Shown one piece after another: positions 44,973 to 63,975 of a DNA stretch of 64,000 nt (positions within the stretch are counted from its first letter, which is position 1; each line of letters starts with the position of its first letter). This DNA is from an uncultured Lachnospiraceae bacterium (GTDB lineage: Bacteria > Bacillota > Clostridia > Lachnospirales > Lachnospiraceae). A model generated the notes under the pieces. The model saw only the letters and a program-made list of their open reading frames with translations, did no database searches and had not been told where the DNA came from. The stretch lies in assembly GCA_964650965.1 (NCBI GenBank), contig CAZYYO010000004.1, positions 6,221 to 70,220 of the forward strand, given 5' to 3'. The translations under genes were made by a program, and so were the position numbers.

Positions 44973-45001
44973 TTGCCATTATAAGATTTTTTTGATAGAA
45001 T
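44973..45001 (+). promoter_or_regulatory. sigma-A-type promoter for the small toxin-like ORF
   Basis: TTGCCA (44973-44978), a 17-nt spacer, and TAGAAT (44996-45001) with an upstream TG (extended -10). Predicted start near 45008 (GGTGCTACC). Confidence 0.55.
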
Positions 45002-45007
45002 ATACGT

Positions 45008-45268
45008 GGTGCTACCTTGCACGGTAGGCGGTTAGCCCTCTTATGGAGGGTACGCCCTCCAAAGGCACTGTATTTCACAGTGAGAAAGGAGGGATTGCCA
45101 TGGTTAGTTATGCCGAGTTGTTTCAATTTGGATTGTTAATCGTAGCTATTGTTGGTCTTGTTTACAAGATTTCACATAAAAAATAATCGCCCACAAGCCT
45201 GAAAACTTAAGCGATTATTTTTATCAAATAATTTTGAGGGCTGACCGTCTATCGGTAGCACCTTTTTT
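45008..45268 (+). other. predicted toxin mRNA with long-range 5'/3' end pairing and an SD-sequestering helix
   Basis: 5' GGTGCTACC (45008-45016) and CGGTTAGCCCTC (45029-45040) pair with 3' GAGGGCTGACCG (45236-45247) and GGTAGCACC (45254-45262), followed by T6. CCCTCC (45055-45060) is complementary to the SD GGAGGG (45088-45093). An internal hairpin plus U-tract lies at 45182-45222. Confidence 0.45.
45100..45186 (+). CDS. 28-aa hydrophobic peptide, putative holin-like (Hol-Tox-type) type I toxin
   Basis: The ATG is preceded by AGGAGGG at a 6-nt spacing. Peptide MVSYAELFQFGLLIVAIVGLVYKISHKK has one TM helix and a basic tail. It has its own promoter and terminators, plus a convergent antisense unit. 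Confidence 0.55.
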   Translation: MVSYAELFQFGLLIVAIVGLVYKISHKK

Positions 45269-45269
45269 C
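45178..45269 (-). ncRNA. candidate antisense (antitoxin-like) sRNA, about 90 nt
   Basis: Runs from the predicted start just below the -10 to the hairpin AATAATCGC...GCGATTATT (45219-45182) followed by a U-run on the minus strand. Overlaps the last toxin codons and the 3' UTR. Confidence 0.4.
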
Positions 45270-45275
45270 ATCTAT

Positions 45276-45304
45276 ATATTAGAATATAGATAATCATTTG
45301 TCAA
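45276..45304 (-). promoter_or_regulatory. convergent sigma-A-type promoter antisense to the 3' part of the toxin transcript
   Basis: The minus strand reads TTGACA (45304-45299), a 17-nt spacer, and TAATAT (45281-45276). Confidence 0.55.
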
Positions 45305-49855: not shown

Positions 49856-50088
49856 GAGGATTTGTGCAGTTAATATTGCTTCTTCTTGGATACCAGAAAT
49901 AAGATATTCTAAGTATTCCTGGTTTCATTATGCATAGTGTGACGCAAGCGGCTTAAATTCGCCATCCATGGCTCAGTTAAGCCTTTCACAGACATCGTGT
50001 CTGTGAATTGCTGGTTGCTGAAAGGAATACTAAGAATATCTAATTCCTTATATAAGGCGAAGAATCAATACCAACTGCACAAATCCTC
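49856..50088 (+). repeat. long foldback element, copy 1 (74-nt conserved core 49941-50014)
   Basis: Basal arms GAGGATTTGTGCAGTT (49856-49871) / AACTGCACAAATCCTC (50073-50088). Proximal arms 49902-49920 / 50023-50041. The core matches 63830-63903 at 70 of 74 positions. Confidence 0.8.
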
Positions 50089-63743: not shown

Positions 63744-63975
63744 AGCGGGCTGCACCGCCCCTGGTTTCCTTTGTTGGATTGGGAAATAAGGTATTCTAAG
63801 GATTCCTCGCGGTAGGTGGGGAAGGGGGAGACGCAAGCGGCTTAAATTCGCCATCCATGGCTCAGTTAAGCCTTTCGCAGACGTCCTGTCTGCGAATTGC
63901 TGGGAGGAGAGAGGAATTCTAAGAATACCTAATTTCCGGCATCAGGCAAAGAAAACCAGGGGTGGTGCAACTCGC
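63744..63975 (+). repeat. long foldback element, copy 2 (74-nt conserved core 63830-63903)
   Basis: Basal arms 63751-63773 / 63947-63969 (21 Watson-Crick pairs, 1 G-T, 1 mismatch). Proximal arms 63789-63808 / 63911-63930. Outer limits are approximate. Confidence 0.8.

Follow-up and report, generated by a model that had tools for sequence, protein, structure and literature searches.

The intergenic island of 330 bp at positions 44973-45304 of the window raises the question of whether it holds a small toxin gene together with an antisense antitoxin, and how the second would restrain the first. The window is the whole stretch of DNA analysed: 64,000 nucleotides (nt) of an uncultured Lachnospiraceae bacterium (assembly GCA_964650965.1, contig CAZYYO010000004.1, positions 6,221 to 70,220 of the forward strand). 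A preliminary description had read the island as a compact type I toxin-antitoxin (TA)-like cassette of six elements: a promoter, an end-paired transcript, a sequestered Shine-Dalgarno (SD) sequence, a 28-codon open reading frame (ORF), a promoter on the opposite strand and a hairpin with U-tracts on both strands. Sequence inspection finds all six where that description had placed them, and its core reading is supported by the peptide family and by the conservation and covariation of RNA and promoters across about 90 independent loci. What is observed directly is the set of elements, how they are conserved and covary, and the family to which the peptide belongs. Since the identical set recurs at many unrelated loci, the features of the cassette are not due to chance. 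The island is most probably a chromosomal type I TA module of the TxpA/BsrG/SprG (Hol_Tox) kind, with a logic like that of the bsrG/SR4 pair. The toxin family has been known in Clostridiales since 2010 and this kind of module is known from Bacillus and Staphylococcus; to our knowledge, catalogues of type I TA systems are poor beyond Bacillus, Staphylococcus, Enterococcus, C. difficile and enterobacteria.

Homologous loci were found by scanning one genome per GTDB species with a back-translated pattern and were confirmed by tblastn. The comparison comprises 87 distinct cassettes, in which the flanks align at the nucleotide level, and the analyses of the untranslated region (UTR), the hairpin and the switch use 67 homologues.

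The putative toxin ORF and its peptide family

The putative toxin ORF (45100-45186, plus strand) shows 28 codons and a stop, and encodes MVSYAELFQFGLLIVAIVGLVYKISHKK, a peptide with a single hydrophobic helix at residues 8-22 (FQFGLLIVAIVGLVY) and a basic tail, KISHKK. This layout of helix and basic C-terminus is kept in 71 distinct peptides of 22-50 amino acids (aa), with modes at 27-30. The likeness to small holin-like toxins drawn in the preliminary description is supported by a profile search: the sole Pfam match of the window peptide, borderline at 0.1 bit under the gathering score, is Hol_Tox (PF16935; E = 6e-5, 23.2 bits), and the same model is matched at E <= 0.01 by 39 of 41 diverse peptides of the family (best E = 2.2e-8). 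Manually entered query sequences of TxpA, BsrG and PepG1 match it at 31-35 bits, so that Hol_Tox covers the TxpA/BsrG/SprG toxins. According to Fozo et al. (2010), the TxpA family has members in Clostridiales, and the annotation 'holin-like toxin' is given to some of its proteins; TxpA-like sequences are named in Clostridium bolteae in a review of Clostridia (2019).

Among 79 distinct ORF sequences, the entropy by codon position is 15.2/5.5/27.7 and synonymous codon differences (21,504) are slightly more numerous than non-synonymous ones (20,834), which together indicate purifying selection on the protein. The ORF is also conserved across homologous loci, as the earlier reading required, being pseudogenised in only one of the 87 cassettes. 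At that locus (L047:2765-2848), an in-frame TAG is found at codon 23 (…LVY*ITHKK) and the RNA architecture is whole; it is probably a toxin pseudogene with its antitoxin kept. Two loci of Oribacterium sp. KHPX15 (L023:2920-2996 and L028:2920-2996) show an insert of about 75 nt exactly inside the SD, between AAAGGA and GGCG. The two inserts are near-identical, with one alignment difference, and the remaining cassette, including the 5' arm, is whole. The insert contains three small hairpins and puts a weak GAAGG, itself sequestered in a hairpin, ahead of the ATG. Two explanations are conceivable: silencing of the toxin by a small mobile insertion, or the gain of a regulatory domain.

The preliminary description had supposed that an ORF of this size usually goes unannotated. 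This is wrong: RefSeq lists 28-aa relatives from Eisenbergiella and Merdisoma under the name 'putative holin-like toxin' (for example WP_416387754.1 of Eisenbergiella tayi). Other gene callers lengthen relatives upstream to 44-63 aa; since the extended versions diverge in the part before MV[ST]Y, the unit that is conserved is the 28-aa ORF, and the 44-63-aa versions are annotation artefacts. Their N-terminal extensions are the translated conserved 5' UTR, such as 'VLPYTVGG' from GUGCUACC…ACGGUAGGCGG. In the window, an upstream in-frame ATG gives a 47-aa ORF at 45043-45186, which is reported by at least one gene caller. A 29-aa ORF on the minus strand (45261-45172) was rejected as coding: it has no SD, and its starting GTG is lost in homologues with a covarying outer helix.

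The family assignment also bears on a reading in which the peptide is a small membrane protein under antisense control and no toxin, either regulating a membrane complex or, like ComI, inhibiting competence, so that the locus would be a regulatory pair and not an addiction or defence module. The NCBIfam matches of the window peptide are weak and belong to PepG1 and, as the best, to ComI, a competence inhibitor of 30 aa (E = 3.5e-5, far under the cut-off); moreover, the antisense-paired family member YhzE-2 was not toxic on testing (Fozo et al., 2010). Hol_Tox, however, also takes in TxpA, BsrG and PepG1, which are experimentally toxic, and the one pseudogenised ORF and the two copies whose SD is interrupted are consistent with a product that is harmful and selected against. 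The genomic contexts that bear on this reading are described below.

A long-range helix between the ends of the predicted mRNA

The predicted toxin mRNA (45008-45268, plus strand, about 261 nt) runs from the presumed start site to a run of six T past the 3' arm (45263-45268), which is its candidate 3' end; transcript ends on both strands are placed by consensus motifs. An inverted-repeat search finds both arms of the helix on the plus strand, and folding pairs them: the 5' arm (45008-45040) shows GCCCUC, here called element A, at its inner end, and the 3' arm (45236-45262) shows GAGGGC, element E. The end-paired transcript followed by six T of the preliminary description is thus recovered. The 263-nt stretch at 45008-45270, which holds this transcript, has a minimum free energy (MFE) of -105.3 kcal/mol with its ends paired over 27 bp, against -65.0 +/- 4.8 kcal/mol in 200 shuffles (z = -8.47), none of which is as good. 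The duplex of the two arms by itself has an energy of -50.9 kcal/mol. Neither the peptide nor either arm occurs a second time in the 64,000-nt window.

The same helix is a property of the family. The 5' UTR is joined to the region past the hairpin in 79 of the 87 MFE folds, and in 50 of 51 cassettes from viral contigs, with arm duplexes of about -35 to -60 kcal/mol in nearly all cassettes. The outer helices clearly covary: GGUGCUACC/GGUAGCACC, GUGCUUGCC/GGCAAGCAC, GGAAAGUCAGAG/CUCUGACUUUCC and AGGAAUUGCCG/CGGCAAUUCCU. MAFFT with RNAalifold on full cassettes shows the inner helix only, the outer helix being misaligned by indels, and for this reason arm-only constructs and the energies of cognate and non-cognate arms were used. 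The mean duplex energy is -46.1 kcal/mol for cognate arms and -31.4 for non-cognate arms. In the arm-only alignment, in which the arms were chosen by duplex energy and the structure was taken from the window row, 90.9% of the cells are paired against 82.7% in shuffles (0 of 500 shuffles as high), compensatory double changes occur at 19 of the 27 pairs, and slid controls reach at most 52% paired. Homologous mRNA units range from 214 to 285 nt (median 254), and 50 of the 67 homologues show at least five T among the nine nt past the 3' arm.

A cassette that is bounded by inverted repeats, multi-copy and scattered could also owe its repeats to selection at the DNA level, as the ends of a miniature mobile element. 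Against this, 12% of the pairs of the long helix are G·U, two of them conserved, and the plus-strand duplex is more stable than its minus-strand mirror in 58 of 63 cases, from which it follows that the helix is selected as an RNA of the mRNA strand and not as a DNA repeat. Neither property, nor the covariation, is expected of DNA repeats, and both promoters lie outside the repeats. The two near-invariant G·U pairs are 45027/45253 and 45031/45249 in the window (29 and 34 of 35 sequences; columns 20-72 and 24-68 of alignment A4). Because of the G·U pairs, the intramolecular helix is weaker than the antisense duplex. The motifs around these pairs, CGGUAGGCGGUU and AACCGUCUAUCGG, are conserved beyond the needs of pairing, and UCUAU/AUAGA loops could form a kissing contact.

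Convergent promoters, predicted antisense RNA and the hairpin over the stop codon

A consensus scan finds both promoters that had been described, each matching 10/12 consensus positions: the toxin promoter (44973-45001, plus strand), TTGCCA-17-TAGAAT with a TG-extended -10, and the near-consensus antitoxin promoter (45276-45304, minus strand), TTGACA-17-TAATAT. The antisense promoter is conserved in the homologues, where the equivalent position scores at least 10/12 in 73% of the cassettes and at least 9/12 in 92%, against 2% and 9%, respectively, in random windows from the same loci. The toxin promoter of the homologues shows a TG-extended -10 in 51 of 66 (22% in control windows) and a poor -35. 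Type I systems usually combine a strong promoter for the antitoxin with a weak one for the toxin.

The predicted antitoxin RNA (45178-45269, minus strand, about 92 nt) contains a 5' stem-loop complementary to the 3' arm, which lies wholly within its span, and a terminator hairpin; it folds with -27.8 kcal/mol (z = -3.8). Its duplex with the mRNA, whose complementarity is perfect by construction, has an energy of -157.6 kcal/mol, far beyond that of the arm:arm helix. The preliminary description had proposed an antisense RNA of about 90 nt overlapping the stop codon and the 3' UTR, and the homologues agree with this prediction: promoter and terminator are conserved, and the predicted antisense units measure 72-107 nt, with a median of 88.

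The hairpin over the stop codon (45179-45222, both strands) shows perfect 12-bp arms (45179-45190/45211-45222), an A-tract upstream, formed by Lys-Lys-stop, and a T-tract downstream. It is slightly wider than the 45182-45219 first given to it. A GC-cored hairpin past the stop codon is found in nearly all of the 67 cassettes and its stem covaries. The upstream A-tract (at least 6/9) is present in 56 of the 67 and the downstream T-tract (at least 6/9) in 39, and the downstream T-run is lacking in whole clades, such as the Roseburia-like ones. Since the A-run is kept more widely than the T-run, the conserved role of the hairpin is that of terminator of the antisense RNA; the U-tracts that had been noted on both strands are present in the window, and it is mainly the antisense one that is conserved. 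The hairpin is possibly a partial terminator of the mRNA as well, an unconvincing one in many homologues, and the mRNA must often read through it to the 3' arm. At 45175-45190 (AAAAAATAA) the Lys-Lys codons and the stop double as the template of the antisense terminator U-tract, so that the basic tail of the toxin and the terminator of the antitoxin share nucleotides.

The minus-strand promoter of the window points at an ABC-transporter operon (44771-42556), and it could be merely a distal promoter of these genes without a dedicated antisense RNA. However, a hairpin with a U-tract lies about 90 nt downstream of it, and this promoter and its terminator are conserved at loci where the downstream genes are unrelated and no ABC transporter is nearby; the ABC-transporter or WYL neighbours of the window are shared by none of the 91 fetched loci. 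The distal-promoter reading and that of a miniature inverted-repeat element were rejected on the G·U content, the covariation and the conservation at unrelated loci, and are considered extremely improbable.

Distribution and genomic context

The cassette is found at no fewer than 236 tblastn-confirmed loci in GTDB representative genomes, 80 of which were fetched. Most belong to Lachnospiraceae, including Oribacterium, Roseburia, Enterocloster and Eisenbergiella, and others belong to Oscillospiraceae and Christensenella. Predicted viral contigs of IMG/VR contain 84 confirmed loci. A tblastn search of PLSDB plasmids and GenBank phages with the peptide, a short hydrophobic query run with the low-complexity filter on, gave no match, which is not read as absence. 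The flanking genes are unlike between loci: holA and a radical SAM gene at one (L001), an AraC-family gene and enolase at another (L007). Several genomes carry three to five copies of the cassette and tandem arrays also occur. Unrelated flanks, multiple copies and tandem copies show that the cassette is a self-contained, horizontally scattered module. Clustered copies are found in L116 (IMG/VR; ORFs at 1466, 2001 and 2400), L011/L016 (two ORFs, 420 nt apart), L077 (three, in both orientations) and L027 (two, and a remnant at 1083-1124), and the copies in arrays each retain their own arms and promoters.

These contexts also bear on the reading as a non-toxic membrane protein under antisense control. 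The window copy lies amid housekeeping-type genes with no obvious mobile element, as would suit a regulatory pair, but the multiple copies, tandem arrays, scattered contexts and viral contigs of the family are traits typical of TA systems. Together with the toxicity of the family members named above, they make this reading distinctly unlikely.

Elsewhere in the window, the TwoAYGGAY RNA motif (RF01731) shows two full-length Rfam matches, at 49888-50055 and 63775-63944, both on the minus strand and within 14 kb, with 129 and 113 bits, where the gathering score is 43. We take this motif to be an orphan structured RNA of gut Clostridia, and we know of no function for it.

Predicted control of translation

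Between the 5' arm and the start codon, the plus strand of the window contains three elements in addition to A: element B (GGAGGG, 45046-45051), an SD look-alike whose pairing partner is A or C; element C (CCCUCC, 45055-45060), an anti-SD; and element D (GGAGGG, 45088-45093), the SD itself, 6 nt 5' of the ATG. A small optional hairpin, CACUGU/ACAGUG (45066-45082), is found within the C:D stem and only some homologues have it. The sequestration of the SD by CCCTCC and the competing upstream hairpin, both claimed in the preliminary description, are present: the nascent 5' UTR of the window folds as A:B and C:D, and the MFE structures of both the full and the truncated RNA pair C with the SD. Once the fold models include the 3' arm, A takes E as its partner and B is released. 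The order A-B-C-D (cgcg) is found in 53 of the 67 homologues and A-D only (cg) in seven; an odd-numbered form is clear in none, and the other seven show irregular counts that on inspection were read as scoring artefacts. Element B is present in at least 53 of the 67 homologues, and the RNAalifold consensus pairs it with C.

Removal or blocking of the 3' arm lowers the modelled access to the SD. In the 67 homologues the probability that the SD is unpaired shows a mean of 0.16 and a median of 0.095 in the full-length RNA; without the 3' arm, or with that arm blocked as the antisense RNA would block it, the mean falls to 0.039 and the median to 0.009. The full-length RNA gives the higher value in 54 homologues and the lower one in six. 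At least four of the five SD bases are paired in 66 of the 67 truncated MFE folds and in 54 of the 67 full-length ones.

In the mechanism that we infer from these models and by analogy with bsrG/SR4, and which concerns transcripts, toxicity, the direction of the switch and the involvement of RNase III, the weak TG-extended promoter would give an mRNA of about 260 nt for the 28-aa single-helix membrane peptide. The near-consensus convergent promoter would give an antisense RNA of about 90 nt, complementary to the last 90 nt or so of the mRNA: the 3' arm, the spacer, the hairpin, the final Lys codons and the stop. In the nascent mRNA, A (GCCCUC) would pair with B (GGAGGG) and C (CCCUCC) with the SD, and translation would be off. 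The 3' arm, once made, would capture the 5' arm over 27 bp, B would be freed and would compete for C, and the SD would become somewhat more accessible. The antisense RNA would form a stronger, all-Watson-Crick duplex with the 3' arm and displace the 5' arm; A:B and C:SD would then re-form and translation would again be off. The long antisense:mRNA duplex would finally be cleaved by RNase III, leading to decay of the mRNA.

The same module could also work as in hok, as the preliminary description had suggested from the end pairing. In that case the 5'/3' helix would be a fold-back lock that keeps the mRNA inert and stable until 3' (or 5') processing removes an arm, and the antisense RNA would mainly trigger mRNA decay. 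The full-length MFE of the window keeps the SD paired with CCCUCC while the ends are paired, its SD-open state costs +10.5 kcal/mol, the SD is mostly paired in the 54 full-length folds mentioned above, and end pairing is recognised in several type I toxin mRNAs (T1TAdb paper). However, the loss of SD access on removal or blocking of the 3' arm (54 homologues against six) is the reverse of what happens in hok activation. All of the 5' UTRs that were cleanly scored (60 of 67) have an even number of elements, a parity that fits an opening of the SD by arm pairing. The antisense RNA targets the 3' arm, unlike Sok, which acts at the translation initiation region, and the probed relative bsrG behaves as is proposed here for the window cassette. 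A hok-like lock is for these reasons rather unlikely.

A wider proposal, which we regard as possible rather than probable, is that these cassettes form a large RNA family of gut Clostridia and their phages, absent from Rfam, in which the antitoxin would act about 200 nt from the ribosome-binding site by a strand-displacement relay. The antisense RNA would be a perfect-match mimic of the 5' arm, outcompeting a helix weakened by two G·U pairs and an internal loop, and the released arm would trigger alternating CCCUC/GGAGG helices, an even number of elements leading to closure of the SD. The clamp between the mRNA ends would then be an activator and not a lock. The literature search gave no paper describing RNAs of this clade.

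Several points weigh against the type I module with bsrG/SR4-like logic. The window peptide scores 0.1 bit under the Hol_Tox gathering score (23.2 against 23.3), some members of the family, such as the antisense-paired YhzE-2, were not toxic on testing, and the literature search gave no expression, toxicity or repression data for the window locus or its homologues. The SD of the window is mostly paired in every modelled state, with a probability of being unpaired of 0.079 against 0.004, and the +10.5 kcal/mol given above is the cost of forcing its SD-open B:C state; the predicted switch is relative and its effect in the models modest, not on/off. MFE models of 260-nt RNAs are unreliable, and the 67 homologues are phylogenetically related, so that the Wilcoxon P for the SD comparison overstates their independence and is indicative only. 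The hairpin of the window clade resembles a good sense-strand terminator too (seven T of nine) and, if this terminator is efficient, most of the mRNA would lack the 3' arm. Finally, an Rfam scan gave no relevant match to the cassette even at E <= 10, the overlapping matches being terminator-like noise, and RNA homology to bsrG/SR4 or RatA is therefore not supported, the layout alone being shared.

Judged in silico, the cassette has the features of a type I TA locus and of the bsrG/SR4-type layout. The comparison leaves the current view of type I TA biology unchanged. It shows modules of the TxpA/BsrG type, with an mRNA architecture and an antitoxin gene that can both be recognised, to be common, and often multi-copy, in Lachnospiraceae, Oscillospiraceae and their phages and prophages. 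The comparative data are a seed alignment for an RNA family model with which the toxin mRNA and the antitoxin can be annotated jointly, and the conserved cassette accounts for many inconsistent gene calls of 28-63 aa at such loci. The homologues also provide 67 natural variants of a long-range RNA switch earlier probed in bsrG/SR4 only, which could help in planning mutational tests or in designing RNA devices.

Comparison with known systems

The hok/sok system (plasmid R1 and enterobacterial chromosomes) shares with the window cassette the 5'/3' end-pairing of the full-length mRNA, a sequestered SD and a small membrane peptide. Sok, however, overlaps the 5' leader (mok), whereas the window antisense unit is located at the 3' end, and Hok is activated by 3' trimming, whereas loss of the 3' arm closes the SD in the models presented here. 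The Pfam scan of the window peptide gave no match to the Hok or Fst families. Of the fold-back claimed in the preliminary description, the end pairing stands; helix P1 of bsrG is its better match, and the hok analogy is less apt because modelled arm blocking lowers SD access and the antisense RNA targets the 3' arm, as in bsrG/SR4.

The par system (fst/RNAII, Enterococcus faecalis pAD1) shows convergent toxin and antitoxin RNAs that share a central terminator hairpin, as in the window. The repeats of par are direct repeats in the DNA, which make the 5' regions of the two RNAs complementary, while those of the window are inverted, and for that reason the window antisense RNA resembles the mRNA 5' arm and competes with it.

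The txpA/RatA (B. subtilis skin element; E. faecalis EF3263 with an antisense RNA of about 110 nt) and SprG/SprF (S. aureus) systems contain toxins of the Hol_Tox/TxpA family with an N-terminal M-x-x-Y-x-x-L, one transmembrane helix and a basic tail, and a cis-antisense RNA overlapping the 3' end. Their toxins measure 31-59 aa, the sequences of their antitoxin RNAs are unrelated, and their toxicity and antitoxin function were shown experimentally, whereas the window cassette is predicted from sequence.

The bsrG/SR4 system of the B. subtilis SPbeta prophage differs from the window cassette in size and detail: the toxin shows 38 aa against 28 here, the antitoxin about 180 nt against about 90, and the overlap 123 nt against about 90. 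Only the window antitoxin has a terminator that overlaps the toxin stop and uses the Lys-Lys-stop A-run, the explicit four-element CCCUC/GGAGG relay belongs to the window family, no RNA sequence similarity was found, and the hosts are Lachnospiraceae and Oscillospiraceae and not Bacillus. The toxins of both belong to Hol_Tox. In both, a convergent antitoxin can base-pair with the 3' part of the toxin mRNA, the end of the coding sequence included, the 5' end of the mRNA is tied by a long helix to the 3' region that the antitoxin binds, and the SD lies in a local duplex. The antitoxin promoter is the stronger one in both, as described for SR4 (Jahn & Brantl, 2013, PMC3834814). Probing of bsrG showed that SR4, the complement of the 3' end, releases nt 1-33 of helix P1 from pairing, that a new stem-loop extends the SD duplex from 4 to 8 bp, and that decay depends on RNase III (PMC3834814). 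This release of the 5' arm and tighter sequestration of the SD, shown for bsrG, is what is predicted for the window cassette.

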